Shown here one piece after another: positions 9,816-28,797 of a DNA stretch of 64,000 nt. A model generated the notes under the pieces. That model saw only the letters and a list, made by a program, of their open reading frames with translations. It was not told where the DNA came from and made no database searches. The position numbers and the translations under genes are program-made. Source of the DNA: a bacterium (lineage in GTDB: Bacteria; UBA8248; JACPRG01; G963555815); the NCBI GenBank assembly GCA_965261595.1, contig CBDHDG010000004.1:672001-736000 (forward strand), in the 5' to 3' direction. The number at the start of each line of letters is the position of its first letter. Within the stretch, counting starts at the first letter, position 1.

Positions 9816-11627
9816 CTAACCGGCTTCCTGCACGGCCGGTTCGGTTTCTTCTTCCGACCCAATCTCGGCTTCGGGGTCTTCCTCCTCGGCGGCGGCGACA
9901 TCCGCGCCGTCTGACGCGTCGTCCCCCTCCGCCTCCCCCTCGGCCTCGTCCGGCGTCTCGACCACCTCCCCCCCGGAAAACGGCTCTTCTTCCGCCTCCA
10001 AGGCATCCGAGGCGTCCAGGGTTTCCGGCGGCGGAGCGGCATCGATCTCCTCGTCACTCGGAAGGTCGTCGGTCTCGGACGGGGTTTCCGATTGATCTTC
10101 TTCGTCGAGATCCCGAATTCCGATCTTGGAGCTTTCAGCCCCTTCATCGAAAAACTGACGCCGCTTTCTCCATCCCGTGAACGCCCCGGCCAGGCAGAGC
10201 AGGCCGAGGCCCATCATGCTCATCTGCGGCCACCGGGCTTTCCAGATGGACGGCCTTCGGACGACCGGTTTCGCGGGCTTCCGGGACGCGTCCGCGTCGA
10301 AAACGATCACCTTCCTCCGGCTCGGTTTCCGCTTTTTCACGCGCGGCTTCTCCGGAACGGATTTCTTCTCAGGGGGTTTCGGGGCGGGGATGTCAAAAAC
10401 GGGTTCAGGCGGCATACTGCCCTTTCGAAGGAACACCGGCACTTCCGTAATGGGGACGACCTTTCCGACGGGCCAACCCGATTTCGTCGCCACGGACTTC
10501 ACGAAAACAACCCGAACCACCGGAGGCCGGGCGCTCCCTTTCACAGGGATCGCGGGTATCTTATCGATCACCCGCTCCCCGCCGGCCGGGGCCGATTCCT
10601 CGAAAACCTGAGGGAGCGCGTCCGGAAGCCGGTAGGAGACTCCCTGTCCGGTCTTTTCTTCCGCCGCTCGCAACCCATCGGCCACAACGACCTTCTCTGT
10701 AGGAGCCCGGGGCGGATTCTTCGCCGGCGCGGGTTTCCGCGAAACGGATTTCTTTCCGAGACGCCGCCTTTTTGCCGGGGCCTTCCGCCGCCTCGGTGGC
10801 GCCGGCTTAGCCTTCCCCGCCCTCTCCTTCCCCCTCCCCCTCCGCTCCATCCGGAAGACAAGGGACAACCGGGCGTCCGGGGCGAGGCGGAGGATTCTGG
10901 ATTCTTCCCGGTAACCCTTCTTCCGAATCTTCAACTGGTGTTTTCCGGGTTTGAGGCCCAGAAGAAGAATGGGGGTCCTACCCTTCCACTTGCCGTCCAG
11001 GACCACCGCCGCCTGCCCGGGGGAGGAGACAATCCGCACGGTCCCGGTCCGGCCCGAAGCTTGCTTGCGCCGGTCCGGCGCACGGCGAGCCAGCTTCCGG
11101 GCCCGGTAGGAAGGCGGGAACAATGATTCGTTGAATGGCGGCGCGCCCAGGAGGTTCGCCTCCCTGACCCGCCCGCTCGGCCGTAGACGCGCGAGCCCAC
11201 TCTTGACCCACTTCAGCACTGGCCGTGATCTTGAATGATCGACATGGCCCCGGGGGATCGCCTCCAGGATTCGCTCGGCCTGCTCGGCGTACCGGATGGC
11301 CCGCGCCTTGTCGCCCATCCGTTCATGGGCATAAGACGCCAACGAAGCCGCCTCGACGACGTTGGCCCGGCCCGCGCTCCGCTCGCAAAATCCCGCGACC
11401 CGATCCAAGAATTTGGTAGCCATGGAGAATTTCCCTTGCTCCAGCATCCGCTGACCCACCTTGATGCTGAAGCGCGCTTCACTCACAGTCCCCCTGGATT
11501 TCGCCGGACCGTCGCATGAACCCGCCGAAAGGCCTCCGCCAACGGCCAGGAGAAATCCCGGAACGAGAATGAGGAGGCCGATCAAGAATCGATGCTTCGG
11601 TCGAATCATTGAAATTGATCCCAACAT
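9816..11627 (-). CDS. Membrane-anchored PEGA-domain protein with Lys/Pro-rich linker and acidic tail
   Basis: N-terminal hydrophobic segment; SSPGQAAVVLDG..GRTP..L.PGKH.L.I.K.GY PEGA motif; TM near C-terminus; D/E-rich tail. Start uncertain. Confidence 0.7.
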   Translation of the reverse strand: MLGSISMIRPKHRFLIGLLILVPGFLLAVGGGLSAGSCDGPAKSRGTVSEARFSIKVGQRMLEQGKFSMATKFLDRVAGFCERSAGRANVVEAASLASYAHERMGDKARAIRYAEQAERILEAIPRGHVDHSRSRPVLKWVKSGLARLRPSGRVREANLLGAPPFNESLFPPSYRARKLARRAPDRRKQASGRTGTVRIVSSPGQAAVVLDGKWKGRTPILLLGLKPGKHQLKIRKKGYREESRILRLAPDARLSLVFRMERRGRGKERAGKAKPAPPRRRKAPAKRRRLGKKSVSRKPAPAKNPPRAPTEKVVVADGLRAAEEKTGQGVSYRLPDALPQVFEESAPAGGERVIDKIPAIPVKGSARPPVVRVVFVKSVATKSGWPVGKVVPITEVPVFLRKGSMPPEPVFDIPAPKPPEKKSVPEKPRVKKRKPSRRKVIVFDADASRKPAKPVVRRPSIWKARWPQMSMMGLGLLCLAGAFTGWRKRRQFFDEGAESSKIGIRDLDEEDQSETPSETDDLPSDEEIDAAPPPETLDASDALEAEEEPFSGGEVVETPDEAEGEAEGDDASDGADVAAAEEEDPEAEIGSEEETEPAVQEAG

Positions 11628-14710: not shown

Positions 14711-14962
14711 TCAAACGGCAATCCCGCCCGCGATGGGCGGAAAGATTCCAACCACGTCCCCTTCGGCCAGACGCTCCTCCGCTGAAACCTGCCGGTGATT
14801 CCGCATCAAGAGATTCACCTCCTCCCGCGGGATCCCCATGCGCCGGATGATGTCGGACACCCGGGCCCCCTCGGGTAAATCCAGGGTGGAGCGCTTCCCG
14901 CGCCGGTCTTCCGGCGGAAGATACCCGATGAAGTGCGCAAAGACCCGGACCTCAATTCTCAC
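14711..14962 (-). CDS. MoaD/ThiS-family sulfur carrier
   Basis: 83 aa, LAEGDVVGIFPPIAGG motif followed by IAV. Confidence 0.85.
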   Translation of the reverse strand: MRIEVRVFAHFIGYLPPEDRRGKRSTLDLPEGARVSDIIRRMGIPREEVNLLMRNHRQVSAEERLAEGDVVGIFPPIAGGIAV

Positions 14963-16190
14963 GGCGCAGGACCTCTCTGGCCGCCGCGAGGGCCTCCTCG
15001 TGCACCCGCCGGAGGGGAACCCCTTGCTCCCGCGCCGCCCGGCGGCAATCCTCGTACTCGGGCGACACCCCCGGGTCCGGCCCCCCGCACGGGGAAGACA
15101 CCTTGACCCTCAGCGGGCCGTATCGCGTCCGCACCGTCATCTCGCGGCGCGCGACCGCCAGCCGGTCGGTCCAGGTCCAACGGACGCCGAGGCTCGATGT
15201 CTCTCGCAGGACCGCATGCACGAGGGCGCTCTTCTTCTCTGGCCGGCCCAACACGGAGAGGAGGATTCCGGGGCGGGATTTCTTCATGCCCACCGGCGTC
15301 CAATAGACATCCAACGCCCCCTCCGCGAAGAGGATCTCACCCACGTGCTCGTAGAACTCGGGGTTCATGTCGTCGATGTTGGCCTCGATGAGGACCAGGC
15401 GCTCGATGACCGCTCCCCCGCCCTCCCCATCCATCCCCTCTTCCACCGGCTCCCCCAGGACGAGCCGCAAGACGTTGGGCCGTTCCAGGTCCCGGGTTCC
15501 CGCGCCGTACCCCACGGCCTTGAGCCGCATGGGCGGCATGGGGCCGAAGGCGTCCGCCAGCGTCGTCAACAGGGCCGCGCCGGTCGGCGTCACGAGCTCG
15601 GCCTCGATCCCGGTCCCCCGAACCGGCACATCCCGGACCAGCTCCAGCGTGGCCGGGGCCGGAACGGGCTGTTGTCCGTGGGCGGAGCGGATGAACCCGG
15701 CGCCCAAAGGGAGCGGCGAAGCCTCGACGCGCCCGACGCCCAACAGGGCGAGGCCCGCGACCGCTCCCACGATGTCCGCGATGGCGTCCAGGGCCCCGAC
15801 TTCGTGGAAATGGACCTCCTCAATCCCGATGCGGTGAATCCGGGACTCCGCCTCGGCCAGACGGCGAAAGACCCGCAGGCTCTTCTCCTTCACCGCCTCC
15901 GAGAGGGCGCTCGATTCGATGATCCGCCGGACCTCGGCGTAGCGGCGGTGTTCGTGGCGCTCCTCCCCCGGGGGAGGGTGGGAGGGGGGGCGGGCCGGGG
16001 TCACGACATCCACCTTTGTGGCGCCGAACCCGTTCTTCTTGACGGACCTTGCGCGCAAGGACAGGCCCGGCAAGCGAAGCCGGTCGATCTCCCCCTGAAG
16101 GTCTTCGATGGGAAGACCCGCGTCCACCAGGGCCCCCAGCGTCATGTCTCCGCTGACGCCCGACACGCAGTCGAAGTAGGCGAGCGTCAC
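14952..16190 (-). CDS. larC: Nickel-pincer cofactor nickel insertase
   Basis: YFDCVSGVSGDM.LGAL, VHFHEVGALDAIADIVG, PVPAPAT, ELVTPTGAA, EANIDDMNPE, MKKSRPG. Confidence 0.95.
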   Translation of the reverse strand: MTLAYFDCVSGVSGDMTLGALVDAGLPIEDLQGEIDRLRLPGLSLRARSVKKNGFGATKVDVVTPARPPSHPPPGEERHEHRRYAEVRRIIESSALSEAVKEKSLRVFRRLAEAESRIHRIGIEEVHFHEVGALDAIADIVGAVAGLALLGVGRVEASPLPLGAGFIRSAHGQQPVPAPATLELVRDVPVRGTGIEAELVTPTGAALLTTLADAFGPMPPMRLKAVGYGAGTRDLERPNVLRLVLGEPVEEGMDGEGGGAVIERLVLIEANIDDMNPEFYEHVGEILFAEGALDVYWTPVGMKKSRPGILLSVLGRPEKKSALVHAVLRETSSLGVRWTWTDRLAVARREMTVRTRYGPLRVKVSSPCGGPDPGVSPEYEDCRRAAREQGVPLRRVHEEALAAAREVLRREN

Positions 16191-16951
16191 GTCCCGATCC
16201 GGTTGATTTTGTCGGCCTGAACCGCGGCGCCAAACCCGTTGTCGATGTTCACCACCGAAACCCCCGGGGCGCAGGAATTAAGCATGGCGAGCAGCGCGGC
16301 CAGCCCGCCGAAGCTCGCCCCGTAGCCGACGCTCGTCGGGACCGCGATGACCGGGCAGTCCACCAGCCCGCCGACAACGCTCGGCAGCGCCCCCTCCATC
16401 CCCGCCACGACGATGATCACCCGGGCCTTGCGGAGGATCGGCCACCTGTCGAGCAATCGCGGAAGGCCGGCCACGCCCACGTCGTAAACACGCTCCACCC
16501 GGTTGCCCCACGCCTCGAGCGTGAAGGCCGCCTCCTCGGCGACGGGATAATCCGCCGTCCCGCCGGAAGCCACCGCCACCCGGCCGAATCCGTCCCTCGG
16601 CGAAGCCGGGGGCTCACGGCGGATGAGAGCGATGCGGGCCTCGGGGTTGCACTCAAATGGAAATCCCAGGGATTCCAGGGCCCGCGCGGATTCCGGCGGG
16701 AGCCGGGTCGCCAGGACCATGTCCTCGCCGCCCCTCAGAATCTCCCGGGCGATGTCACGGGTCTGATCCGGCGTCTTCCCCTCGGCGAAGATGACTTCGC
16801 CGCGTCCGGTCCGCAGGGCCCGGTGATGATCGACCTTCGCGAAGCCGAGATCGGTGAAAGGCATCGCCCGGAGGCGATCGAGGGCCTCCTCCGGGGCGAC
16901 CCGGCCCGCCTCGACCTCGATCAGCAAGGACCTCAGGCGATCAACGTTCAT
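16187..16951 (-). CDS. larB: Nickel-pincer cofactor biosynthesis carboxylase/hydrolase
   Basis: AKVDHHR..R.G..EVI..EGKT, DVGVAG, VAGMEGALPSVVGGL, PTSVGYGA, VNIDNGFGAA. Confidence 0.95.
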   Translation of the reverse strand: MNVDRLRSLLIEVEAGRVAPEEALDRLRAMPFTDLGFAKVDHHRALRTGRGEVIFAEGKTPDQTRDIAREILRGGEDMVLATRLPPESARALESLGFPFECNPEARIALIRREPPASPRDGFGRVAVASGGTADYPVAEEAAFTLEAWGNRVERVYDVGVAGLPRLLDRWPILRKARVIIVVAGMEGALPSVVGGLVDCPVIAVPTSVGYGASFGGLAALLAMLNSCAPGVSVVNIDNGFGAAVQADKINRIGT

Positions 16952-17816
16952 GCGCGAAAACGGGTGTGGAGATGACCGGCAGCGGGATCGACCCGGGACG
17001 ATCGGCGGGCGGCCCGTTCAGGCTCCCGGTGCGGTACCCCTTCAGGTCTACGGAGACCTTGGGAAACCCGATCCGCTGAAACGCGCGAGAGACCGCGTCC
17101 ATCATGCCGGGCTCGAAGAACCGGGCGATCTCCCCCGCCTCCACCTCGATCCGGGCCAACGGTCCGTGGTGGCGGACCCGGAGCTGGCGAAAGCCGAGCC
17201 CCCTCAAATGGGCCTCGGCCCGCTCCACCGTCCTGAGCTTCTCGGCGGTCACCCGCTGTCCCCGGGGAATCCGCGAGGCCAGACAGGCCATGGCCGGCTT
17301 GTCCCAGGTGGGCAGCCCCATCGCCTTGGAGAGGACGCGAATCTCCGCCTTGGTCAGGTCCGCCTCCAGCAAGGGGCTGCGAACGCCGTACGCCCGCGCG
17401 GCCGCCCGCCCGGGCCGCTCATCGGACAGGTCGTCCGGGATTGTGCCGTCCGCCACGCAGGCGATTCCCTCGCGGTCCGCAATCGAGACCAGCCGGCGGA
17501 AAAGCTCTTCCTTGCAGAAAAAGCACCGGTCGGCGGCATTGGCGGCGTATCGCGGATCGGCCAGCTCCCGGGTGTCGATCTCGAGGAGACGGATGCCGAT
17601 CCGCTCGGCCACGCGCCGGGCCTCGGCGAGATCGGACGCCGGAAGAGAGGGCGACCGCCCCGTCACCGCGAGGGCGCCGTCGCCCAGGACGCGCCTTGCG
17701 GCGTCGGCCAGAAAGGCGCTGTCCACCCCGGCGGAGAACGCCACCAGGACGCTTCCCATCCGGAGGAGGATCGTTTCCAGATTCCGGTGTTTCTGTTTCG
17801 TCGGCGGGGGGATCAA
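16941..17816 (-). CDS. larE: ATP-dependent sulfur insertase of NPN biosynthesis
   Basis: PP-loop SAGVDS, RCFFCK, KPAMACLASRIP, RVRHHG, DLKGYRTGS. Confidence 0.95.
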   Translation of the reverse strand: MIPPPTKQKHRNLETILLRMGSVLVAFSAGVDSAFLADAARRVLGDGALAVTGRSPSLPASDLAEARRVAERIGIRLLEIDTRELADPRYAANAADRCFFCKEELFRRLVSIADREGIACVADGTIPDDLSDERPGRAAARAYGVRSPLLEADLTKAEIRVLSKAMGLPTWDKPAMACLASRIPRGQRVTAEKLRTVERAEAHLRGLGFRQLRVRHHGPLARIEVEAGEIARFFEPGMMDAVSRAFQRIGFPKVSVDLKGYRTGSLNGPPADRPGSIPLPVISTPVFAHER

Positions 17817-17923: not shown

Positions 17924-19234
17924 ATGGCGAAGGAGAAAGCCCCGGTTGCGGGCCAGGCGTCGACAGCGGAGACCCCGCTTCCGGCCAAGCGCTCGATGTT
18001 CGAGAACGCCCAGCTCTATTTCGACCGGATCGCCGAACAGATGGATCTGGACGATGGAATCCACCAGCTCCTTCGCACGCCGGTGCGCGAGCTGACGGTC
18101 AACTTTCCCGTCGTTTTGGATGACCGCACCGTCCGGATCTTTCAGGGATACCGGATTCAGCACAGCCTCCTGCGCGGACCGGCCAAAGGGGGCATCCGCT
18201 ACGCCCCCTCCGTCACGCAGGATGAGGTCCGGGCGCTGGCCATGGGGATGACCTGGAAGACAGCGGTCGTCAACGTTCCTTTCGGCGGGGCGAAAGGCGG
18301 GGTCCGCGTCAACCCCAAGGAGGTCTCCGATCGCGAGCTGGAGCGGATCACCCGGCGTTATACGTCGGACATTTCGATCATCATCGGTCCCGACAGCGAC
18401 ATTCCGGCTCCCGACATGGGAACCGACGCCCGCGTCATGGCCTGGATCATGGACACCTACAGCATGAACAAGGGTTTTTCGATTCCGGGCGTCGTCACCG
18501 GGAAGCCGATCTCGATCGGCGGATCCCTGGGGCGGGTCGAGGCCACGGGACGGGGCGTCATGTTCGCCACCGTCCTGGCCGCGAAGAAGCTCAACATCAA
18601 CCTTCACGACGCCAAGGTCGCCATCCAGGGCTTCGGCAATGTGGGATCGGTGACCGCCAAGATCCTGGATGAAATCGGCTGCCGGATCATCGGCGTCAGC
18701 GACGGGGAGGGGGGCATCCACAATCCGTCGGGGCTCGACATGGAAGCCGTCTTCGAATACAAGGACGGACCCGGCGGCCAATCGGTCAACGGGTTTCCCG
18801 AGGCGGACGCCCTGTCGAGCGACGAAGTCCTCTATCTGGACGCGGACATCGTGATCCCCGCCGCCATCGAGAACCAGATCCGGGCCGACAACGTGGACCG
18901 CATCCGGCCCCGGCTCCTCATCGAGGCGGCCAACGGACCCACCACGCCGGAAGCGGACGCGGCGCTTCTCGACCGGGGGGTCTTCATCGTGCCCGATATC
19001 TTCGCCAACGCCGGCGGCGTCATCGTCTCTTATCTGGAGTGGGTTCAGAACCTTCAGGAATTCCAGTGGACGGAGGAATCCATCAACCACCAGCTCAGGC
19101 GGACGATGGAAGAGAGCTTTCACGAGATCAACGAGATCGCCGATCAGAAGAAGGCCGACATGCGGACGGCCTCTTACCGCCTCGCCGTGAACCGGGTCGC
19201 CGAGGCGTTCAACGTCCGGGGCATTTTCCCGTAA
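17924..19234 (+). CDS. gdhA: Glu/Leu/Phe/Val dehydrogenase (glutamate dehydrogenase)
   Basis: GPAKGGIRY, MTWK, FGGAKGG, DIPAPD, QGFGNVG, EAANGP. Confidence 0.93.
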   Translation: MAKEKAPVAGQASTAETPLPAKRSMFENAQLYFDRIAEQMDLDDGIHQLLRTPVRELTVNFPVVLDDRTVRIFQGYRIQHSLLRGPAKGGIRYAPSVTQDEVRALAMGMTWKTAVVNVPFGGAKGGVRVNPKEVSDRELERITRRYTSDISIIIGPDSDIPAPDMGTDARVMAWIMDTYSMNKGFSIPGVVTGKPISIGGSLGRVEATGRGVMFATVLAAKKLNINLHDAKVAIQGFGNVGSVTAKILDEIGCRIIGVSDGEGGIHNPSGLDMEAVFEYKDGPGGQSVNGFPEADALSSDEVLYLDADIVIPAAIENQIRADNVDRIRPRLLIEAANGPTTPEADAALLDRGVFIVPDIFANAGGVIVSYLEWVQNLQEFQWTEESINHQLRRTMEESFHEINEIADQKKADMRTASYRLAVNRVAEAFNVRGIFP

Positions 19235-19278
19235 TCCCCCGCGCGATTCCTTACGGGAGGGGGGAGGAGGGAGGGGCA

Positions 19279-19884
19279 ATGTCACGGAAGCGAAGCCTTT
19301 GGGCCGCGCTCATCGCGTGGGTCCTTCTCGTTCCGCCGGCCCCAGGCCCGGCGGCGGCGAAGAAAGACCGGGGAAAATATTCCTCCTCCTCCTCCCCCTT
19401 TCGGATTCTCAAGCGCCGTCCGAAGTTCGGTCTCGTCCGATTCCCGAAAGCGCGCCCCTCGCCTGAATTCAGCCTCCCGGATCTCGAAGGGAAAATCGTC
19501 CGCCTTTCGGACCTTCGCGGCAAGGTGCTGGTCTTGAATTTCTGGGCCACCTGGTGTCCCCCCTGCGTGGAAGAAATGCCCAGCCTCGAGAAGCTCCACC
19601 GGCATTTCCAGGGAAGGCCGTTCGAGGTGGTCGCTGTCTCGGTAGACGCCGAAGGTGTGGAGAAGGTCCGGGAATTCGTGAAAAAAGGAGGATTCACCTT
19701 CCGGGTCCTGCACGACCGGAAAAAGACGACGGAGCGCCCTTTCGGCGTCCGCGGCCTTCCGATCTCCTACGTGATCGACACCAAAGGGAGGATGGTGGCG
19801 GGGGCCATCGGGGCCAAGGATTGGGCCTCGAAGAAGGCTTACGCGTACTTCGAGGGGCTTTTGAAGGGTGTTTCGAGCCCATAG
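19279..19884 (+). CDS. TlpA/ResA-like periplasmic thiol-disulfide oxidoreductase
   Basis: Signal peptide; LNFWATWCPPCVEEMP; GLP cis-Pro loop; GGAGGAGG RBS. Confidence 0.9.
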   Translation: MSRKRSLWAALIAWVLLVPPAPGPAAAKKDRGKYSSSSSPFRILKRRPKFGLVRFPKARPSPEFSLPDLEGKIVRLSDLRGKVLVLNFWATWCPPCVEEMPSLEKLHRHFQGRPFEVVAVSVDAEGVEKVREFVKKGGFTFRVLHDRKKTTERPFGVRGLPISYVIDTKGRMVAGAIGAKDWASKKAYAYFEGLLKGVSSP

Positions 19885-20071
19885 CGGGTCAGGAAAACCG
19901 CCCGTCGCTCCCCCCTCCCCTCCCCCCCCCCCCGATTTCGCTTGCCGGAAATAAAACACCGCCCCTTGCGATTCAACCGGATGAGATTGGGCGGCGCCCT
20001 CCGCGCATCTTTCCGGCCTGGATCTCTTTGAATCCGGTCAGACGCCCGTTCGGCCGAAAAGGCGCTCTTCG

Positions 20072-20860
20072 ATGGCTCGTCATGGTCTCCGCGTAATCGT
20101 CCTCCTCCCCCTCCTCCCCTTCCTCGCCGGCTTCGCCGGGATTCTCGCCGAGACATGGGGTCAGGCGGGAATTCCCCGCGACGATGCTCCGATGGCCCGG
20201 GTCCCCGCCGGTGTATTCCTGATGGGCGATTCGCGCGGGGCGCTCACCGAGCGGCCCCAAATCCGGGTCCACCTGGACGCCTTCGAGATCGACGTTCACG
20301 AAGTCACGAACGTGCGGTACGCCCGGTTCATGCGGGCGCGGCGCAAGACGGGAAGACCCGTCAGGACACCCGATTATTGGGACTCCCCCGCATTGAATCC
20401 GCCGCGGCATCCCGTGGTCGGGCTGACTTGGCAGTAGGCCCGGGCCTACTGCGCCTGGGCCGGAAAACGCCTTCCCACCGAGGCCGAATGGGAAAAGGCC
20501 GCGCGCGGAACGGACGGTCGGAGGTATCCGTGGGGGGACGCCTTCGGCGCCGGCAGGGCCAACGCCGCGCCGGCGGGTCTGAACCGGCCGGCGCCGGTGG
20601 GGTCCTTTCCTTCCGGGCGAAGTCCGTACGGACTGGAGGACATGGCGGGAAACGTCTGGGAGTGGACGGCCACGCCTTACGGGGCTTACTACTACCGGGT
20701 CTCTCCCCCGCGGAATCCCCGGGGCCCTCGTGACGGATGGCTGAAGGTCATTCGCGGCGGTTCCTGGATGAACGGGCCGGATCAGGTCCGGACGAGCGTG
20801 CGCTTCCGGCTGGACCCCGTCGTGAAATGGAAGCGCGTGGGCATGCGCTGCGCCCGCTGA
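20072..20860 (+). CDS. Secreted FGE-sulfatase (SUMF1)-domain protein with in-frame TAG at 20435-20437
   Basis: [58 protein letters not shown] continuous in one frame across the TAG. Confidence 0.8.
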
Positions 20861-21021
20861 CCCGAAGGGCGCCCGGTTCTCATCATTCCAAAGCCGGAAA
20901 CGGACAGAATAATCCAATTGAGAATTTGTTGACCCTATTAAATAATGACGGATCTCCCGTCTTCAGAGGATTTGTTCCCCTGACGACAAGAAAAGACGAG
21001 GATCCGAAGAAGGGACGTTTG

Positions 21022-21743
21022 GTGAATCGAATTCGATGGATGGCCCTGGGGATTGTGCTCCCCGCGATGTTCTGGACTTTTTCCGCGTGGGGTTACGAGG
21101 TCGTCGAGGTAAAGGACGGCGGCGCGGTGAGCGGAACAATCACATTCGAGGGACAGGCCCCGGCGCCGAAAGAATTGCGCGTCACCAAAACGAAAATGTC
21201 TGCGGGGTGAAGCCCTTATTTTCCCAGGAGTTCGTCGTCTCCAAGAAGGGGGCGCTCAAGAACGTCGTGATTTCGCTGGTCGGCGTTGAAAAGGGCAAGG
21301 CCTTCAAGAAGAAATCCGCCCGGCTGATTCAGCGGCAGTGCATGTTCGTCCCGCACGTCGCCCTGATCCCGGTCGGAAAGCGGTTCAAACTCGTCAACGA
21401 GGACAAGCTCCTCCACAACCTCCGGACCCTATCGAAAGAGAACGTCGCCCTGAACATCGCCCACCCGAAGTTCAAAAAGACCCTCCGGATCAAGAAGAAG
21501 TTCAAGAAACCCGAAATCATGCGGATCAAATGCGACATCCATTCCTGGATGGACGGGTGGATCATCGCCATCGCTCACCCCTACTACGTCGTATCCAAAA
21601 AGTCCGGCCGGTTCACCCTGAAGAACGTCCCCCCGGGCGCATACAAGCTCCGGGCCTGGCACGAGATCCTGGGCGAACAGGTCCAAACCGTCACGGTCCC
21701 CGCCGGCGGAGAGGTGAAGGCCGATTTCACTTTCAAGAAATAG
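21022..21743 (+). CDS. Secreted cupredoxin-like / carboxypeptidase-regulatory-like domain protein (1-nt frameshift near 21190)
   Basis: Signal peptide; QxxCxFxPHV, HN, CDIHSWM, PPGxYxLxAWHE; frames join if one A is added to the run at 21187-21190. Confidence 0.75.
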
Positions 21744-21753
21744 CCTCCTCGGC

Positions 21754-22905
21754 ATGAGCCCCCTGCCGCCCTCCGGCGCCCGAGCGCGCTCCGCGAGCCG
21801 TTCGCGCCCCTCCGCCCAAGGGCGATGCCCCCGCCTTGGGCGGGCCTGTCGCGCCCTCCTCGCGGGATTCCCCGCTCCGTCTTCCGCCCACCACGTCAAG
21901 ATGCGGTCCGGCCCCTTCGGCGGAATGGTCAGCTCCATTTCCATCCACCCCTCGGACCCGCGAAGGATTTACGCGGGGGTCTTCGGCACTGGTGTCTTCG
22001 GCGCGGGGGTCTACCGCTCGGACGACGGCGGGACCCTTTGGACCGCGAAATCCAGGGGCCTGACGGACACCGGCGTCTACAGCGTCCTCGTCCTCCCGGC
22101 AGGCGGAACCGTCCTGGCGGCCACGAACACCGGGGTTTTCCGGTCCGTGGACGGGGGTGAATCGTGGAAGCCGTCGAATCGCGGACTCCCCGATACAGGG
22201 GTCCGGATGTTCGCCCCCCTGTCCGAAAGCCACATCCTGGCCGCAACCGGGTCGGGGGTGTTTCGCAGCCGCGCCGGGGGAAAGACCTGGGCGGATGCGT
22301 CCGAAGGGCTCACAAACCAGGACGTCCGATGGCTTACCGTCGAGCCCGACGCGAAGAGAACGATCTTCGCGGCCACCTTCGGGGGCCTTTTCGAGAGCCG
22401 GGACGGCGGACGGACCTGGCGGGAAAAGGGTCTCTCCCTCCCCCCACTGCGCACGGCCATTGTGGCGGCGGGGGGACGGACGGTGATCGCCGGTTCGGCG
22501 AACCGGGGCGCCTTCATCAGCCTGGACGGGGGCGCGACGTTCAAACCCGCGAATGAAGGCCTCCCCAGCCCCTACATCATGGCCCTCGGATTCTCGGCGG
22601 CGGCGGGGGAGGAAGAAGGAGCAGAGGGATCTCCACCCATCTTCCTGGCCGGGACCCTCGGCGGATTGTACGTGAGCCGCAACGGAGGAAGCCGTTGGAA
22701 TTACCTGTCGAGCGACATGACGAACCTGTCCATTACGGCCTTCGCCGTCCATCCGAAGGACCCGAAGATGATTTTCGCCGCCACCGGCGGCCTGATCTTC
22801 CGGACGGCCGATGGAGGCCGCACTTGGACGAACCAGGCGCGCTGGGTGATCCATCATGCGGGGAGATTGAATCCGGCGCGGGGAAAATCCTTCGCCGGCC
22901 GGTGA
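21754..22905 (+). CDS. BNR/Asp-box repeat beta-propeller protein (VPS10/Ycf48-like)
   Basis: Repeated GVYRSDDGGxxW / SxDGGxTW Asp boxes; start uncertain. Confidence 0.8.
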   Translation: MSPLPPSGARARSASRSRPSAQGRCPRLGRACRALLAGFPAPSSAHHVKMRSGPFGGMVSSISIHPSDPRRIYAGVFGTGVFGAGVYRSDDGGTLWTAKSRGLTDTGVYSVLVLPAGGTVLAATNTGVFRSVDGGESWKPSNRGLPDTGVRMFAPLSESHILAATGSGVFRSRAGGKTWADASEGLTNQDVRWLTVEPDAKRTIFAATFGGLFESRDGGRTWREKGLSLPPLRTAIVAAGGRTVIAGSANRGAFISLDGGATFKPANEGLPSPYIMALGFSAAAGEEEGAEGSPPIFLAGTLGGLYVSRNGGSRWNYLSSDMTNLSITAFAVHPKDPKMIFAATGGLIFRTADGGRTWTNQARWVIHHAGRLNPARGKSFAGR

Positions 22906-22999
22906 ACGGTTGCGGGACCGCCGGCCTGATCCGTGATTGCGAATGACCGTGGGCGCATGCGCCAAAGGAGAGAAGCTCCATGAAAGGGAGGGAAGTTCC

Positions 23000-23719
23000 A
23001 TGAAAGGGAGAAACCGGAAGTGGTTGGGCGTTTCCTTGCTGGCCCTGGCGTTTGCCGTCAGCGGGCCGATGGGCTGGACGCAAACGTCCGACGCCGCAAA
23101 GAAGGCCAATCCATGTAACCCATGCGCCGCGAAGAAGGGAAATCCGTGTAATCCGTGCGCGGCCAAGGGAAATCCATGCAATCCCTGCGCGGCGAAGAAG
23201 GCCAATCCGTGCAACCCATGTGCGGCCAAGAAGGCCAACCCATGCAACCCGTGCGGGGTCAAAGCCAAGGCGAATCCGTGCAACCCGTGCGCGGCCGGCG
23301 GCGGCCGGAAGGGCCCCCGGGCCAAGGCCCGGATGATCATCGGGAAGGTGCTCTACGCGAAAGGCAATTACGTGGCGGTCCAGTGGAAGGGCGCGAAAAT
23401 CAACATCGGCGTCCACGCCAAAACGCAGTACTCCCGCGGACCCGCCAAATCCTCCCTCGGCTCGATCAAGCCGGGAGAGCGGATCATCGTTTCGATGATG
23501 GATCGGGGCGGCAAACTGAGCGCCAACTACGTCTACCTGTCCAAGGCCTCGAAGGGCGGAAACCCCTGTAACCCATGCGCGGCCAAAGGGAATCCCTGCA
23601 ACCCGTGTGCGGCCAAGAAGGCCAACCCGTGCAACCCATGCGCCGCCAAAGGAAATCCCTGCAATCCATGCGCGGCGAAGAAGGCCAACCCGTGCAACCC
23701 GTGCGCGGCCAAAAAGTGA
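23000..23719 (+). CDS. Secreted protein with 11 NPCNPC repeats flanking a small basic beta-rich domain
   Basis: RBS, signal peptide ending SDAA, 6 N-terminal and 5 C-terminal NPCNPC units, synonymous codon variation among units. Confidence 0.88.
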   Translation: MKGRNRKWLGVSLLALAFAVSGPMGWTQTSDAAKKANPCNPCAAKKGNPCNPCAAKGNPCNPCAAKKANPCNPCAAKKANPCNPCGVKAKANPCNPCAAGGGRKGPRAKARMIIGKVLYAKGNYVAVQWKGAKINIGVHAKTQYSRGPAKSSLGSIKPGERIIVSMMDRGGKLSANYVYLSKASKGGNPCNPCAAKGNPCNPCAAKKANPCNPCAAKGNPCNPCAAKKANPCNPCAAKK

Positions 23720-23805
23720 TTGCGGCTTGTGCCGACGGATTCCGAGCGGGATTCGAAAGAGACGCGTCCAAACGCGGAACACTCGAACTCAAGGGAGGTC
23801 AATCA

Positions 23806-24435
23806 ATGCTTCGATCATGGACGAGGGTCTCGGCGGCCCTCCTCGCAGCGGTGGTGATGACGGCCGGGACGGCCGCAATCGCCTCCGCCCAGAAAAAGAA
23901 GACCATCCCCATGGGGCCCTATTTTCAAACGCTCCAGAAGGATGCGTCCATCGCCGCCGCCATCAAGCGGGGAAAGCGGCAGTTCAACCAACTGGGTTGC
24001 GCTGGCTGTCATCCGCGCGGGGGCACCATCGGCGGAACCGCCCGGGCGGTCGACGGAAGCCCGGTGCCCGTTCCCATTCCCCAGCTCGTGGGCGCGGCCC
24101 TTCACTACCCGCGCCTATCGATGACGGGGTTCGCGGCGAACATCGGCATCATGAACGACCTCTGAAACACGATCTTTCTCGGCCGTGAGCCGATGGATCC
24201 CAATTCCCAGCAGTACATGGACCTGTACGCCTACGTCGCCTCTCTTACACCGGCGGTCAAAAAGGAGATGCTCCGGTGGGAGAAAGAGCGCCAGGCCCTG
24301 ATGAAGAAAATCATGAGCAAGGGCGGGGGCGGCAAAGGCAACCCCTGCAACCCGTGCGCGGCCAAAGGGAACCCGTGCAATCCTTGCGCGGCCAAGAAGG
24401 CCAATCCGTGCAACCCATGCGCGGGGAAGAAGTAA
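23806..24435 (+). CDS. SoxA/TsdA-like monoheme cytochrome c, predicted selenoprotein (U120), with 3 C-terminal NPCNPC repeats
   Basis: GGAGG RBS, signal peptide, CAGCH, LVGAALHYP, MNDL-TGA-NTIFLG..DPNSQQYMDLYAYVASL in one frame. Confidence 0.82.
24171..24199 (+). promoter_or_regulatory. Bacterial SECIS-like hairpin
   Basis: Stem TCGGC/GCCGA (24179-24193), loop CGTGA with GT, 18 nt between the TGA and the loop; lower GATC/GATC pairing. Confidence 0.72.
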
Positions 24436-24460
24436 GAAACGCACGCTGTTTGATATAATT

Positions 24461-24494
24461 GAAAGGGGGACGGTTGCGAGGCCGTCCCCCTTTC
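24461..24494 (+). terminator. Strong hairpin after the cytochrome gene (terminator or mRNA-stabilising)
   Basis: GAAAGGGGGACGG-N8-CCGTCCCCCTTTC perfect 13-bp stem. Confidence 0.7.
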
Positions 24495-24552
24495 GATTTG
24501 GTTCCGCGAAAAAATTCGGCGCGGATGAACACTGAAGATGGATGGAGAAACG

Positions 24553-25317
24553 ATGAACGCATTCCGGAGACTCTTCGTCGGCGGCATTTTCCTGGCCGTC
24601 GGGTGGGCGGCGTCGCCCGCGATAAGCGCCGAAATCAAGGGCGACCTGGAACAGGGCAAAGACGTCTACGAGGAGATCTGCTTCTCATGCCACGGCGCCA
24701 GAGGGGACGGGAAGGGCCCGAGCTTCCGGAACACGATGCCCTACCCCCAGGTTTTCGCGAATCCCAACTACATGAAGCGCCTGACGCCGCAATACATGTT
24801 CGACGTGGTGAAGTTCGGCAAGCTCGCCGTCATCAAAGGCGAGAAGCAGACCGGGAAGTACGACGTCCTGCCCATGCCCGGGTTCGAGGATTCCCTGGAG
24901 GACGGGGAGATCCGCGGTCTGATCGCCTATGAGAAGTTTCTCCTGACCGGAAAGTGGAACCCACCCAAAGGAAGTGAATTCACGCAAGCGGATATGAAGG
25001 AGTACTTCGACGGGGCCTGCGCCGAGTGCCACGGCCCGAAGGGCAAGGGAAACGGGGACAAGGCGGTCGGAAAGCAGGACCCCGGCAAACCGTTCGTCAG
25101 CGTCGCCCAGCCCGCGCCCGCCGACCAGACCGACCCCCTCCTCATGGCCCGGTTCAACGACGAGTTCATCTTCTGGCTGATCAAGAAAGGCCGCATCGCC
25201 GTCACCGAAGAGAAGAACTTCGACATCATGAAACCCTACGGACACGTCATGAGCGACGAGGAGATCTGGAGCGTCGTGCGGTACGTGTGGGAAACGTATA
25301 TCGAAAAGAAAAAGTGA
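24553..25317 (+). CDS. Diheme cytochrome c
   Basis: Signal peptide; CFSCH and CAECH; PMPGF and MKPY distal Met motifs. Confidence 0.9.
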   Translation: MNAFRRLFVGGIFLAVGWAASPAISAEIKGDLEQGKDVYEEICFSCHGARGDGKGPSFRNTMPYPQVFANPNYMKRLTPQYMFDVVKFGKLAVIKGEKQTGKYDVLPMPGFEDSLEDGEIRGLIAYEKFLLTGKWNPPKGSEFTQADMKEYFDGACAECHGPKGKGNGDKAVGKQDPGKPFVSVAQPAPADQTDPLLMARFNDEFIFWLIKKGRIAVTEEKNFDIMKPYGHVMSDEEIWSVVRYVWETYIEKKK

Positions 25318-25385
25318 GGCGGGCTTCTCGGAAAAGAGAAGCGGCCGACCCGTCCGGCGTTCGTTCTTCGAGGCGCGCGGCAATC

Positions 25386-26597
25386 CTACGGAAGCAGAAT
25401 CGTTCTATCGTACAGGACATACGGCGAAGACATCGCGTGGGCGCGGGCCTTCTCGATCAGTCCGCGCGCCCGGGCGCTCATCCGGCCCTGGAGAAGCGAA
25501 GGGAAGAACGTCGCGCCGTAGTAATCGTCGGGATGGACCTCCACGAAGACGTGGAGGCGCTTCGCCCCCCGGGGGTTGGGCGCGTTGTAGTCGAAGACGC
25601 GGGTCTTCCCGGGGGGGATGCGCGTGTCCGACCGCTCGACCCAGCCGCCTTCGTATTCAAGCCGGCGTTGGATGCGGTCCGCCCGGCGGCTCCCCTCGAT
25701 GGTCTTTCCATTCTCGTCGAGCAGCTCCACCTTGATGAAGACGGCCGGAATCATGTACGTCGGAAACATGTGACCCGCCCCGGTGTTGGTCAGGGTGATT
25801 CGCGCGACGGCCCGGCCCGGAACGGCCTCCTTCCCCCGGGGGACCACAACGCCCAGCGTCACCGCCCGGGCCGTCATCTCCTTGTCGTGAATGCCCCGCC
25901 ACAGGTGCTTGCGCCCCGGCATGTGGCAATCCTGGCACTGAACGCCCAGCTTTGAATACGGCCCTTCTTTCCACTCCACATACGTGTTCTCAATCGGCTT
26001 TCCGTTAACGGCCGCCGACATCGGATGCTGGTGGCACGTCCGGCAAAACTCCGACCGCTCGAAGGCGGTCGTCCGGGTTACGCCTCCGTGGGGCGATTTC
26101 TCCACGCTGGGTCCAAGGGATTTCCCCGCCTTCGGCGGGCCGAACCGCTCGTGCCCCCGCACGTGACAAGCGGCGCAGATCAGCCCCCCCTTCTCCAAAT
26201 CTTTCACGTAGCCCTCGTTCCTGACGACCGTCCCCGACCGCCCGACCCGATAAGGCTGCTGCTCGGCCAGGGGGGCGTGACAACCCACGCAGTCCTCCGC
26301 CCCGGCGGGATTGTCCACCCACTGGCCGACCACGCCCGGGCCCATGGCCTTGGCGTGAAGACTCGTCTTCCAGTCAGCGAGCTGGGCGGGGTGGCAAGCC
26401 CCGCAGGACTGGGGATCGAGCGCGCTTTCCAAGGGAGAGAACCCTTTGGGCGGCTTCCCGTTGGGCGCGAACGGAGATTGCCAGTGCTTGGCGACGAACG
26501 CTTCGATCGCCGGGTCCGGCGACTGGGCCGGGGCCTGGTCCGAAGAGAGCAGGAAGAAACCGGCGCAAGCGACGACGCGAAAAAATGTTTGCCGCAT
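25386..26597 (-). CDS. Pentaheme cytochrome c (c554-like multiheme family)
   Basis: Signal peptide; CGACH, CVGCH, CAACH, CRTCH, CQDCH; C-terminal NTGAGHxFPT domain. Confidence 0.9.
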   Translation of the reverse strand: MRQTFFRVVACAGFFLLSSDQAPAQSPDPAIEAFVAKHWQSPFAPNGKPPKGFSPLESALDPQSCGACHPAQLADWKTSLHAKAMGPGVVGQWVDNPAGAEDCVGCHAPLAEQQPYRVGRSGTVVRNEGYVKDLEKGGLICAACHVRGHERFGPPKAGKSLGPSVEKSPHGGVTRTTAFERSEFCRTCHQHPMSAAVNGKPIENTYVEWKEGPYSKLGVQCQDCHMPGRKHLWRGIHDKEMTARAVTLGVVVPRGKEAVPGRAVARITLTNTGAGHMFPTYMIPAVFIKVELLDENGKTIEGSRRADRIQRRLEYEGGWVERSDTRIPPGKTRVFDYNAPNPRGAKRLHVFVEVHPDDYYGATFFPSLLQGRMSARARGLIEKARAHAMSSPYVLYDRTILLP

Positions 26598-26625
26598 TTT
26601 CAGCGATTGATCCTCTCAGGGAAGA

Positions 26626-26672
26626 CGAAAAGAAAAGACCCGGGAGGATTTTCCTTCCCGGGCCTTCTTTTT
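26626..26672 (-). terminator. Rho-independent terminator after the NPC peptide gene
   Basis: CCCGGGAAGG/CCTCCCGGG stem followed by T-rich run on the minus strand. Confidence 0.65.
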
Positions 26673-27017
26673 ATCAGAATCCAGCCGAAATCAACAATCG
26701 ATTGCTACTTCTTGGCCGCGCAAGGATTGCAGGGGTTGGCCTTTTTCGCCGCGCACGGGTTGCAAGGATTGGCCTTCTTCGCAGCGCACGGGTTGCAAGG
26801 ATTGGCCGCCACCTTGGCCGCGCACGGGTTTGCAGGGGTTGGCCTTTTTCGCGGCGCACGGGTTGGCCTTCTTGTGCCAGGCCGCGTCACTCACCCCGGA
26901 TCCCGCGACGAACAGGACCGCGACCGCCGCCACCAGGAAACTACACAACAGTCCCCCGCTCTAGGGTTTTGTTGGACACTCGATTGATCCATGATTCATG
27001 GAGAAAGGGGTGTCGCG

Positions 27018-27404
27018 ATGAACGAACAAAAGCAAGAGGGGGCTTTGGCGGAGGGCGCCCGCAGGGCGAACGGAGCCAAGGCCCCAGGGCATCGCAGTGA
27101 GCGGGGTCGGTTCTCCTGCCAGCGCAAGCGGGAGGCGGTCCTGCGTCTTTTGCGGGGCGAGAGCCTGGAGACGCTCTGCCGCGAGTTGGGCACGACAGCG
27201 GCTCGGCTTTCCGCCTGGCGCGAGGCGTTCCTTCGCGGGGGCGAGGCGGCGCTCAAAGCCCGCCCGGCGGATGAGCGGGACGAGGAGAACGCCCGGCTCA
27301 AGGCCAAGGTGGGCGAACTCACGATGGAGGGCGAGGTCCTGCGGGAGAAGATCGACCGCCTGGAGGCCGGCCGCCCTTTAGCCGGCAGGAGGTGGAGGCG
27401 ATGA
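27018..27404 (+). CDS. IS3-family transposase OrfA
   Basis: HTH (KREAVLRLLRGESL..L.RELG) plus coiled coil (ENARLKAKVGELTME). Confidence 0.85.
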   Translation: MNEQKQEGALAEGARRANGAKAPGHRSERGRFSCQRKREAVLRLLRGESLETLCRELGTTAARLSAWREAFLRGGEAALKARPADERDEENARLKAKVGELTMEGEVLREKIDRLEAGRPLAGRRWRR

Positions 27405-28309
27405 GTCAGGCCCGCTTCACCTCCACGGGCAGAGCCTACGGCCTGAAGCGGGTGTGCGCCCTTTGGGGCTTGGCGCGCTCCACGGTCTACGCGCAACGGC
27501 GGCGAGAGGCGGTCCCCGTTCATGAACGCCCCACGCCCAATAAGCGCGGCCCTGTGGGCCCGTGCACCGATGCGGAACTCCTCGGCCACATCCGGCAGGT
27601 CCTGGAGGACTCTCCCTTCCATGGCGAGGGCTACCGCAAGGTGTGGGCGAGGCTGCGCTTCGCGGGCATCCGCACCAGCAAGGAGCGGGTGCGTCGCCTG
27701 ATGCGGGAGGCGGGGCTTCAGGCCCCCCACCGGGTGGGCAAACCCCGAGGTCCCAAGGCCCACAACGGGACCATCCGCACCGAGCGGCCCGACCGAGTGT
27801 GGGGCACGGACATGACGACGACGGTGACCACCGAGGAGGGGATGGCCTCGGTGTTCGTGGCGGTGGATCACTGCTCGGTGGACTGCGTGGGGATCCATGC
27901 GGCCAAGAGCGGCAACCGCTTCGAGGCCCTGGAGCCGATCCGGCAGGGGGTCGCCGAGCGCTTCGCCGGCTTGGAGGCGGACGTCGCCGAGGGGCTTAAA
28001 GTTCGTCACGACCACGGCCCCGCCTATCTGTCCGATGACTTTCAGCGGGAGATCGCCTACCTGGGCATGACCAGTTCGCCCAGCTTCGTGCGGGCGCCCG
28101 AGGGAAATGGCTACTGTGAGTGGTTCATCCGCATCTTGAAGGAGAATCTCCTGTGGGTGCGCTCTTTCGCCACCGTAGAGGAACTGCGGTGGGCGCTGCT
28201 TGAGTTCAAGAACCTGTACAACCATCATTGGATTCTCGAGGGCTACGGCTACCGAACGCCGGCCCAGGCAAGGCAGGAAAAACTCGCTCAAGTTGCGGAG
28301 GCCGCATGA
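27401..28309 (+). CDS. IS3-family transposase OrfB (DDE)
   Basis: GYRKVWARL, WGTDMT, HDHG, GNGYCEWFIR; ATGA overlap with orfA. Confidence 0.9.
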   Translation: MSQARFTSTGRAYGLKRVCALWGLARSTVYAQRRREAVPVHERPTPNKRGPVGPCTDAELLGHIRQVLEDSPFHGEGYRKVWARLRFAGIRTSKERVRRLMREAGLQAPHRVGKPRGPKAHNGTIRTERPDRVWGTDMTTTVTTEEGMASVFVAVDHCSVDCVGIHAAKSGNRFEALEPIRQGVAERFAGLEADVAEGLKVRHDHGPAYLSDDFQREIAYLGMTSSPSFVRAPEGNGYCEWFIRILKENLLWVRSFATVEELRWALLEFKNLYNHHWILEGYGYRTPAQARQEKLAQVAEAA

Positions 28310-28797
28310 GGTCGAATACCCTCACCCGAGTGTCCAATAACCCAGGGGCGGTCCAACAGTTTCTTCATGCTCTCTTCTCCCTCTCGTTTTGTAATGGTTC
28401 CCACTTGGAAGACAAAGATTGACCGTCCGGATCACTCGGGCGCCGGATTGAGGGCTTCCCCGGAGACTCGACTTCATCCCCTCTCCCCCTGGATTCAAGC
28501 ATCGCCACTTCTCTGATAACCAAAAAGAAGAGGAGAAATTTCATGGATCGTTGAAATCGTCTAAATTTTTCTTCCACCGGCCTTACCCCCGGCAGGCCGG
28601 ACATCCGGGCCAACCTTGCCCGGCCCGAGCGCAAAGTCATTCCTCCGCCCCTTCAGGACCGCGCGTTCTCATTCGGAGGCTGATATACTGGCAAGGGAAC
28701 CATCACCCGAACCCGACCCAAGAACCTTTGAACGCTCCACTTCGGCCGGGATCCCCCGGATTGCAGGCCCATCGTTTCATGCGGAGGAACCGAGCCC

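Follow-up and report, generated by a model that had tools for sequence, protein, structure and literature searches.

We analysed a window of 64,000 nucleotides, positions 672001-736000 of contig C4 in a 96.7% complete source genome (G000; 7 contigs, 6.17 Mb), and found in it a cluster of genes for haem proteins and cysteine-rich repeat proteins, most of them with hydrophobic N-termini. The central gene encodes a small c-type cytochrome with an in-frame UGA codon, predicted to be read as selenocysteine (Sec), and in this unannotated exported haem protein the iron is probably bound by selenium where sulfur would otherwise be the ligand atom. A sequence-only reading had proposed a periplasmic system here, and the genes that it named (dihaem and pentahaem cytochromes, a WCPPC TlpA, and formylglycine-generating enzyme (FGE)-domain, CxxHxxM and propeller proteins) were all found in their places. 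The features are listed below in window coordinates.

19279..19884, plus strand: exported TlpA/ResA-like thiol-disulfide oxidoreductase with a WCPPC motif (best profile match ResA, 109 bits against a cut-off of 170)
20072..20860, plus strand: FGE-sulfatase-domain protein (domain match), with an in-frame TAG at 20435-20437
21022..21743, plus strand: cupredoxin-like His...CxxHxxM protein with a C-terminal carboxypeptidase-regulatory domain; frameshift at the A-run 21187-21190
21754..22905, plus strand: BNR/YCF48-like beta-propeller (domain match), start uncertain
23000..23719, plus strand: exported barrel of the oligonucleotide/oligosaccharide-binding (OB) fold between 6 and 5 NPCNPC units, 22 Cys (translation and AlphaFold2 (AF2) model)
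23806..24435, plus strand: predicted monohaem c-type selenoprotein of SoxA/TsdA fold, with CxxCH at residues 65-69, Sec120 and three C-terminal NPCNPC units
24163..24165, plus strand: in-frame UGA, predicted Sec, aligned with TsdA Cys96 (homologue alignment and profile)
24176..24197, plus strand: bacterial selenocysteine insertion sequence (SECIS) hairpin, 5-nt loop with G at the second loop position, 18 nt after the UGA
24553..25317, plus strand: dihaem cytochrome c with two CxxCH motifs and two conserved Met, probable His/Met haems; likely electron partner
25386..26597, minus strand: pentahaem cytochrome c with five CxxCH motifs and a C-terminal beta domain, distantly MccSep/ExtKL-like
26705..26951, minus strand: 3' part of the gene for an exported NPC-repeat peptide, 4.5 units, with a 1-base frameshift near 26829
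26952..28355, plus strand: IS3-family insertion sequence (IS) with a 4-bp target duplication, sitting within the peptide gene and outside the system
28356..28368, minus strand: 5' end of the peptide gene, ATG (at 28368) and first codons, matching the N-terminus of the orthologue in locus L001

The repeat counts given earlier were exact: 11 units in the barrel gene, 3 on the cytochrome, and a half unit plus 4 in the minus-strand peptide, where one of the four full units spans the frameshift. In line with the export signals claimed earlier for most of the proteins, a hydrophobic stretch is present at eight of nine N-termini (mean Kyte-Doolittle value of the best 11 residues 2.2-3.2, a measure of hydrophobicity and not a SignalP score); at the propeller the stretch is weak (1.2). 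In a six-frame scan of all 7 contigs, NPC arrays were confined to this locus, beyond which only two single chance NPC doublets occurred, in unrelated frames. Scans for promoters and terminators stayed at chance level (1 vs. 1.1 and 14 vs. 12.2, respectively). RNA run X20 yielded two short near-exact contigs (25623-25910 in the pentahaem gene and 26684-26952 in the peptide gene; share 0.06), and this run may hold DNA.

The in-frame UGA very probably encodes selenocysteine, as had been supposed and as comparison with homologues now indicates. Among 76 metagenome loci, the site is covered in 72, every one of which has TGA there and conserves the frame past it; the scan used Sec-type patterns, so that it is no measure of the Sec:Cys ratio, and some loci are near-duplicates. 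The hairpin fits the bacterial SECIS model in the accessible text of PMC13188914 (16-37 nt after the UGA, G among the first two nucleotides of the loop). Covariation between its two synonymous positions has no exceptions (CTT/CCA 53 times, CTC/CCG 21 times). All 160 of 160 cells were paired in 20 sequences, with one pair changing on both sides (8 cells) and 0 of 500 shuffles reaching the observed covariation; the folding energy was -12.2 kcal/mol (z -2.0). The genes for selA, selB, selD and tRNA-Sec are all present in the source genome. The SelD gene (contig C5, 89297-90265) itself has an in-frame TGA.

Relatives in a sister clade carry the gene with cysteine at this site. The cytochrome was matched in 34 of 61 genomes, with TGA inside the match in six, and TGC or TGT stands at the Sec codon in 24 of the 31 relatives' loci displayed. 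The SECIS hairpin is not kept in Cys-type genes, and the residues encoded there change. Most Cys-type genomes retain selB, and the Sec/Cys swap is therefore gene-specific. In a tree of 129 columns with the SECIS columns dropped and a poor outgroup, the 16 Cys-type rows of the class form one clade among Sec rows (Shimodaira-Hasegawa-like approximate likelihood ratio test, 100), a pattern that suggests a single Sec-to-Cys change in the class. When databases were searched with the read-through domain, 209 of 249 candidates proved to be matching proteins; query coverage was 57-62% in all 120 matches listed for the read-through cytochrome, and Nitrospinota, Methylomirabilia, Binatia, Rokubacteria, and Deltaproteobacteria are among the source names. 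Of 40 database proteins aligned, the 20 displayed stop exactly ahead of the UGA. Databases carry the family cut at this codon, and the ligand has therefore been invisible so far.

We used profile and structure comparisons to place the Sec residue within the haem domain. Profile A2, built from 74 Sec, Cys, and distant homologues, matched SoxA (1h31, E 1.7e-11) and TsdA (4wq7, E 2.5e-8), and in its alignment the Sec falls on Cys96 of TsdA and on the Cys of the SoxA N-terminal haem domain. The SoxA model was matched by 51 of the 74 members at E of 0.01 or less, with no match for the window cytochrome itself, and four more distant relatives passed the gathering cut-off of PF21342, the SoxA/TsdA cytochrome c domain (39-90 bits). 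Searching solved structures with the single sequence yielded no match below E 0.09. The AF2 model, with Cys for Sec, reached a predicted local distance difference test score (pLDDT) of 93.8 and a predicted template modelling score of 0.88. Its best fold match was SoxA 1h31 (Z 10.2, root-mean-square deviation (rmsd) 1.8, 85 residues aligned), and TsdA 4v2k (Z 9.7, rmsd 3.0, 94 aligned) and TsdBA 5lo9 (Z 9.6, rmsd 2.6, 93 aligned) were also among the matches; the top five stood well over the next row (Z 6.9).

According to the accessible part of PMC6879331, haem 1 of TsdA has Cys96 as its distal ligand, this residue is essential and becomes sulfur-modified in catalysis, and two arginines bind the substrate. 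Cys or Sec is retained at the corresponding site in all 48 close homologue rows and in 25 of 26 distant ones, and Arg71, His100, Arg103, Asn117, and Asp118 are invariant in the 48 close rows. By homology with these ligands, we infer that Sec120 is highly likely to bind the haem iron opposite His69. The earlier prediction of a His/Sec haem thus gains support from the profile and fold alignments with Cys96.

The cluster recurs well beyond the source genome. The dihaem gene lies downstream of the cytochrome in 49 of 49 metagenome loci with at least 700 nt of downstream sequence, and the propeller upstream of it in 55 of 59 with at least 400 nt upstream. The long metagenome loci (at least 8 kb, n = 19) contain NPC arrays (17), the pentahaem gene (13), TlpA (8), FGE (6), and CxxHxxM (6). 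In 18 regions from relatives, the usual order is barrel, cytochrome, dihaem, FGE (barrel in 14, dihaem in 16, FGE in 13, by hand count), with the FGE gene directly after the dihaem gene in 13 of them, and three loci (L086, L088, L099) hold all cluster parts in shuffled order. Among 51 genomes of the phylum, which include kin and are not independent, 33 have the cytochrome, 35 the dihaem gene, 31 both and 14 neither. The pentahaem gene, found in 35 of the 51, is a looser member because it is often at another locus and occurs in six genomes without the cytochrome; in family-f2 relatives it lies elsewhere in the genome. The claim of a dedicated periplasmic module is upheld by this recurrence of neighbours across lineages, and no characterised operon of such composition was found in the literature or family databases, as the sequence-only reading had presumed. 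The cluster is a real, conserved, and apparently undescribed periplasmic module, with a core that appears to be a new selenium variant of the SoxA/TsdA haem.

Neighbours seen at single loci (L067:9475-11639; L056:10523-11428; L111:256-684, 9832-11154) are a TrsS-like radical SAM protein with a methyltransferase, ArsS, a MerC-like transporter, and a SoxC-type sulfite dehydrogenase. Upstream in the window (14714-17816) lie larE-larB-larC, genes for the nickel pincer cofactor, and a MoaD-like gene; we treated these as unrelated. The lar genes are collinear in L001 and were not found in the other loci.

This strain carries damage in three accessory genes, namely those for the FGE-domain protein, the CxxHxxM protein, and the NPC-repeat peptide, the last by an IS3 insertion in codons 4-5 in addition to its frameshift. 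From 19200 to 26978, the window is reproduced without a single difference by sequencing run X1, which may be the source sample. The FGE-gene and peptide-gene damage is strain-level because X4 and X7, runs of other studies that represent near-identical strains, read a sense codon where the window has the TAG, are free of the peptide frameshift (as is X20), and part from the window sequence at the IS junction at 26952 without entering the IS. No variant occurs at the UGA in runs X1, X4, or X7. Run X7 has 18 extra bases near 21850, in the propeller gene. The closest named relative locus, L001 (labelled Nitrospinota), holds the whole cluster intact and collinear, with intact FGE and CxxHxxM genes and an intact peptide orthologue of 133 amino acids. 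The IS3-family element is present in 178 near-identical full copies in the source genome, and frameshifts occur in neighbouring genes, such as one of the xanthine dehydrogenase family near 32050; in this genome the IS has recently expanded and gene decay is at an early stage. The IS copies and the three damaged genes would fit a reading in which the UGA is a true stop or an error and the cluster a loose set of decaying genes. We consider this hardly credible given the uniform TGA and conserved frame in the 72 metagenome homologues, the Cys in sister genomes, the SECIS covariation, and the intact L001 cluster.

Among the partner proteins, the dihaem cytochrome is supported as the likely electron partner by its invariable adjacency. 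A complex prediction for a Cys-type cytochrome and the dihaem protein of genome G027 scored 0.45 against 0.01 for the best control, with agreement between runs in at least 92% of contacts and a partner pLDDT of at least 82. In the benchmark, 116 of 157 solved pairs reached the mark, as did 2 of 215 mismatched ones, and scores of 0.60 or less comprised 18 solved pairs and both mismatches; the modelled complex thus lends the pair weak support. A second, isolated dihaem copy lies on contig C4 at 522314-522988 (about 62% identity, second CxxCH changed, C-terminus cut), and G003 likewise has a second copy. The pentahaem protein matched MccSep at E 0.002 and NF040886 at 51.6 bits against a cut-off of 250; five CxxCH motifs are present, though neither Cys239 nor Sec325 of MccSep aligns. 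The CxxHxxM motif is kept in 7 of 7 homologues; together with the upstream His it forms what we take to be a type-1 copper-like ligand set, and the protein matched an amicyanin model at E 0.056 in a profile search.

In formylglycine-generating enzymes, the active-site Cys pair follows an RGGSW motif. Unlike in these enzymes, the stretch after this motif contains no Cys in the window protein or in the 12 homologues displayed. The source genome has at least five other TlpA-like genes. The barrel (85 residues, with 6 units before and 5 after it) was modelled by AF2 at pLDDT 88.5 and resembles a generic OB fold (top Z 9.2, many ties). It has no conserved His, Met, or Cys, fell only into unnamed clusters of the structure Atlas, and had one homologue with a weak match to DUF5666.

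The NPC arms gave a different picture from the earlier account of many CxxC dithiols. The CxxC spacing makes up 56% of 25 Cys spacings here, but its share is 7% in related loci (n = 1052) and 5% in database proteins (n = 799); it is a local variant, and we rejected the dithiol model for the repeats. The usual unit in relatives is NPCAAK. Arms are carried by the cytochrome, OB-fold barrels, free peptides, DUF6789 proteins, a thioredoxin, and a second, separate family with the SoxA/TsdA domain (PF21342 in 21 of the 120 matches listed, by hand count), of which one NPC-flanked member lies inside a cluster (L088:11263-12117). That the arms are joined time and again to haem domains with a cysteine ligand speaks for a thiol arm that would serve such haems, and between metal binding and sulfur carriage, homology likewise favours sulfur or thiol chemistry.

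The arms vary widely among relatives. In Cys-type relatives (L018-L032; family f2, genus g7) they grow to 31-38 NPC units or decay to NPG/NPR variants, and in several Cys-type relative genomes the cytochrome carries a fused N-terminal arm that resembles the barrel. One cluster contains a protein of 434 aa with some 30 repeats (L088:5348-6649). Membrane proteins of the DUF6789 type often contain an internal NPC array; they occur near the cluster (L072:12712-13320) and as P0244 and P0284, and make up 18 of the 120 repeat matches listed (hand count). Outside the cluster (P0235, P0308, P0310, P0270), we found free NPC lipoprotein-like peptides in cyanobacteria (three source-named matches) and an NPC-thioredoxin fusion. 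A reading of the repeat proteins as precursors of ribosomally synthesised and post-translationally modified peptides, with Cys-rich sequence modified by a multinuclear non-haem iron-dependent oxidative enzyme, was rejected; the DUF692 maturase PF05114 was not found in the genome.

The cysteine content of the arms also bears on metal or metalloid handling (Cu, Hg, As, or Se/Te oxyanions), in which the arms would be metallothionein-like sinks and the Sec haem and multihaem proteins would alter the redox state of the ion. Such a role would suit 22 Cys on one exported protein, the recurring cupredoxins (the CxxHxxM protein and a CopI-like protein in 12 loci), the MerC, ArsS, ArsM-like, and DUF3179 genes that each adjoin single loci, the weak matches to ExtS and ExtKL of the selenite/tellurite operon, and the resemblance of the barrel to SilB-C (Z 8.5). 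We judge it quite unlikely, as no metal exporter is a regular neighbour, the barrel lacks conserved His/Met and its SilB match ties with dozens of unrelated OB folds, the CxxC spacing is not conserved, and the Ext matches fall far under the cut-off.

Our best reading, which we favour tentatively, is a periplasmic module for sulfane/thiol redox chemistry that has a catalytic His/Sec haem of the SoxA/TsdA type at its centre, along with tethered cysteine arms. Ligation of the iron by Sec120, the step in which we have considerable confidence, would be followed by release of the selenolate from the iron, as for Cys96 in TsdA/SoxA, and capture of a sulfur species in a mixed Se-S bond. That species would be sulfane sulfur, a polysulfide, a persulfide, or a thiol, and not thiosulfate in the TsdA fashion. 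Two electrons would then pass via the haem to or from the adjacent His/Met dihaem protein and on to the cupredoxin or the pentahaem protein. The flexible NPC(AAK) arms on the cytochrome, on the barrel, and as free peptides would act as multi-site thiol carriers or sinks replacing SoxY, with TlpA resetting them. Protection against reactive sulfur or thiol oxidants seems more likely than energy conservation because SoxY, SoxB, and DsrA were not found and an extracytoplasmic function (ECF) sigma factor of SigH/SigR type with a zinc anti-sigma factor is often adjacent. A more specific pathway, in which the haem loads and unloads sulfur (or selenium) on the poly-Cys arms as a SoxY-free counterpart of SoxAX/TsdA, is conceivable, though we hold it to be doubtful.

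Several results weigh against this module. Many Sec-type cytochromes are tail-less, and the arms are thus not needed in cis; 2 of the 19 long loci have no NPC array, and arms also occur on the thioredoxin and DUF6789 proteins. No sulfur-pathway gene is a regular neighbour, SoxC being seen once (L111), and the ECF pair was not found near the window's own cluster. The best E-value of profile A2 belongs to a cytochrome c peroxidase (3o5c, 8.3e-13), with a non-Cys residue at the site in that alignment. The window protein falls below PF21342 detection, and Foldseek gave no match at E of 0.001 or less, with TsdA ranked first at E 0.023. The modelled fold alone leaves the sulfur chemistry unfixed because hydrazine synthase gamma (5c2v, Z 9.6, rmsd 12.3) and the peroxidase YhjA (Z 9.1) tie or nearly tie with TsdA. 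The TsdA Arg92 position is M, F, or L in 48 of 48 close rows, with no Arg at the Arg82 positions (taken as Arg109 and Arg119 in the accessible text of PMC6879331 by an inferred 27-residue offset). By analogy, the cytochrome probably works like the TsdA/SoxA haem but is no TsdA, and its substrate is probably not thiosulfate, because the substrate-binding arginines of TsdA are absent here.

The same absence, in a monohaem protein, could also mean that the His/Sec haem is a low-potential, non-catalytic centre for electron transfer or sensing, with catalysis by another protein such as the pentahaem protein or the propeller. PsbV2-type His/Cys haems are centres of this kind, and the propeller, adjacent at nearly all loci, and the FGE protein have no assigned role. 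This is improbable, with the five invariant residues named above, no MccSep catalytic residues in the pentahaem protein, and Sec held across wide divergence, a residue that usually marks a catalytic site according to the accessible text of PMC13188914.

The peroxidase matches and the adjacent regulators bear on a further alternative, which overlaps the sulfane/thiol module and does not require sulfur transfer, namely defence against oxidants (peroxide, HOCl, HOSCN, or quinones) in which selenolate and arms would serve as reductants, either sacrificial or catalytic, and TlpA and the multihaem cytochromes would recharge them. SigH/SigR-like ECF factors with zinc anti-sigma factors have a thiol-stress role; an ECF sigma gene (best match SigH/SigR-like, below cut-off) lies beside 15 loci and a zf-HC2 anti-sigma gene beside 16. 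The best sequence and fold matches include cytochrome c peroxidase domains, the arms are fused to thioredoxin elsewhere, and an RclA/MerA-like flavoprotein adjoins the cluster in L056, though in that locus only. Peroxidase haems need an open site, which a thiolate or selenolate sixth ligand would block. His/Met dihaems are usually acceptors and not donors (PMC6879331, accessible text). We therefore regard oxidant defence without sulfur transfer as unlikely and retain the sulfane/thiol module as our reading.

If the pathway of sulfur loading on the arms exists, it would be widespread and unannotated, would contain the first His/Sec c-type haem known from nature, and would give the NPCAAK repeat its first function; its hosts would be uncultured bacteria of the Binatia, Rokubacteria, and Methylomirabilia and others labelled Nitrospinota. 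The locus joins a Sec haem, cysteine arms, and defined partner genes, and is the best handle so far on this repeat. Natural Sec and Cys forms of one gene within one class, some of them in genomes that keep selB, would permit a direct test of selenium at the SoxA/TsdA ligand. The cluster points to sulfur or thiol chemistry in lineages where Sox and Dsr were not found here.

We compared the module with known systems using the literature and family databases. A literature search that covered few subscription papers found no description of the cytochrome family, the NPC repeat, or a natural His/Sec c-type haem, and for TsdA and SoxA together with selenocysteine it returned the MccSep paper alone. 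NCBIfam and Pfam have no family above cut-off for the cytochrome beyond generic cytochrome c. The 119-family selenoprotein table in the accessible text of PMC13188914 lists ExtKL, GSU2204, and an octahaem cytochrome and no monohaem SoxA/TsdA-type protein, and the parts available to us of deep-Sep (PMC12013277), BSepDB (PMC13326102), and a Nitrospinota survey (PMC10839748) make no mention of such a protein.

One close likeness is to the haem-1 domain of TsdA (Allochromatium vinosum 4wq7/4v2k; TsdBA 5lo9), which shares the fold and the position of the distal chalcogen ligand, and the separate His/Met dihaem protein next door recalls TsdB. The cytochrome differs in having Sec and not Cys, one haem per chain (one CxxCH), a C-terminal helix with an NPC tail, and 18-22% identity; with no second haem domain in the chain and both Arg82 and Arg92 absent, we rejected TsdA membership. 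In SoxAX (R. sulfidophilum 1h31), the SoxA N-terminal haem domain is the best fold match. The SoxY carrier arm has a single GGCGG motif. By analogy, the NPC arms may do what this arm does, but the carrier here would be a multi-Cys repeat. Sox membership was rejected because PF13501 and TIGR04486 (soxYZ, soxB) were not found in the 96.7% complete genome, where the positive control matched; DsrA was not found in it either, and Dsr membership was likewise rejected. The small exported OB fold is shared with CusF/SilB-C and DUF5666 barrels, but here it has no conserved His/Met site and is flanked by Cys arms.

Two other systems bring selenium close to haem. The MccSep/ExtKL polysulfide reductase of G. 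sulfurreducens is also a periplasmic haem-c selenoprotein in sulfur chemistry; in the accessible text of PMC13510729, its Cys239 binds haem and Sec325 lies beside it and is not a ligand, whereas the Sec here is a predicted ligand in an unrelated monohaem fold. In cytochrome P450 family M, a natural Sec occupies the lower axial position within the P450 fold (PMC11703216, accessible text). This is the only natural selenolate-haem ligation that we found in print, and the protein described here would instead be c-type, His/Sec-ligated, and exported.

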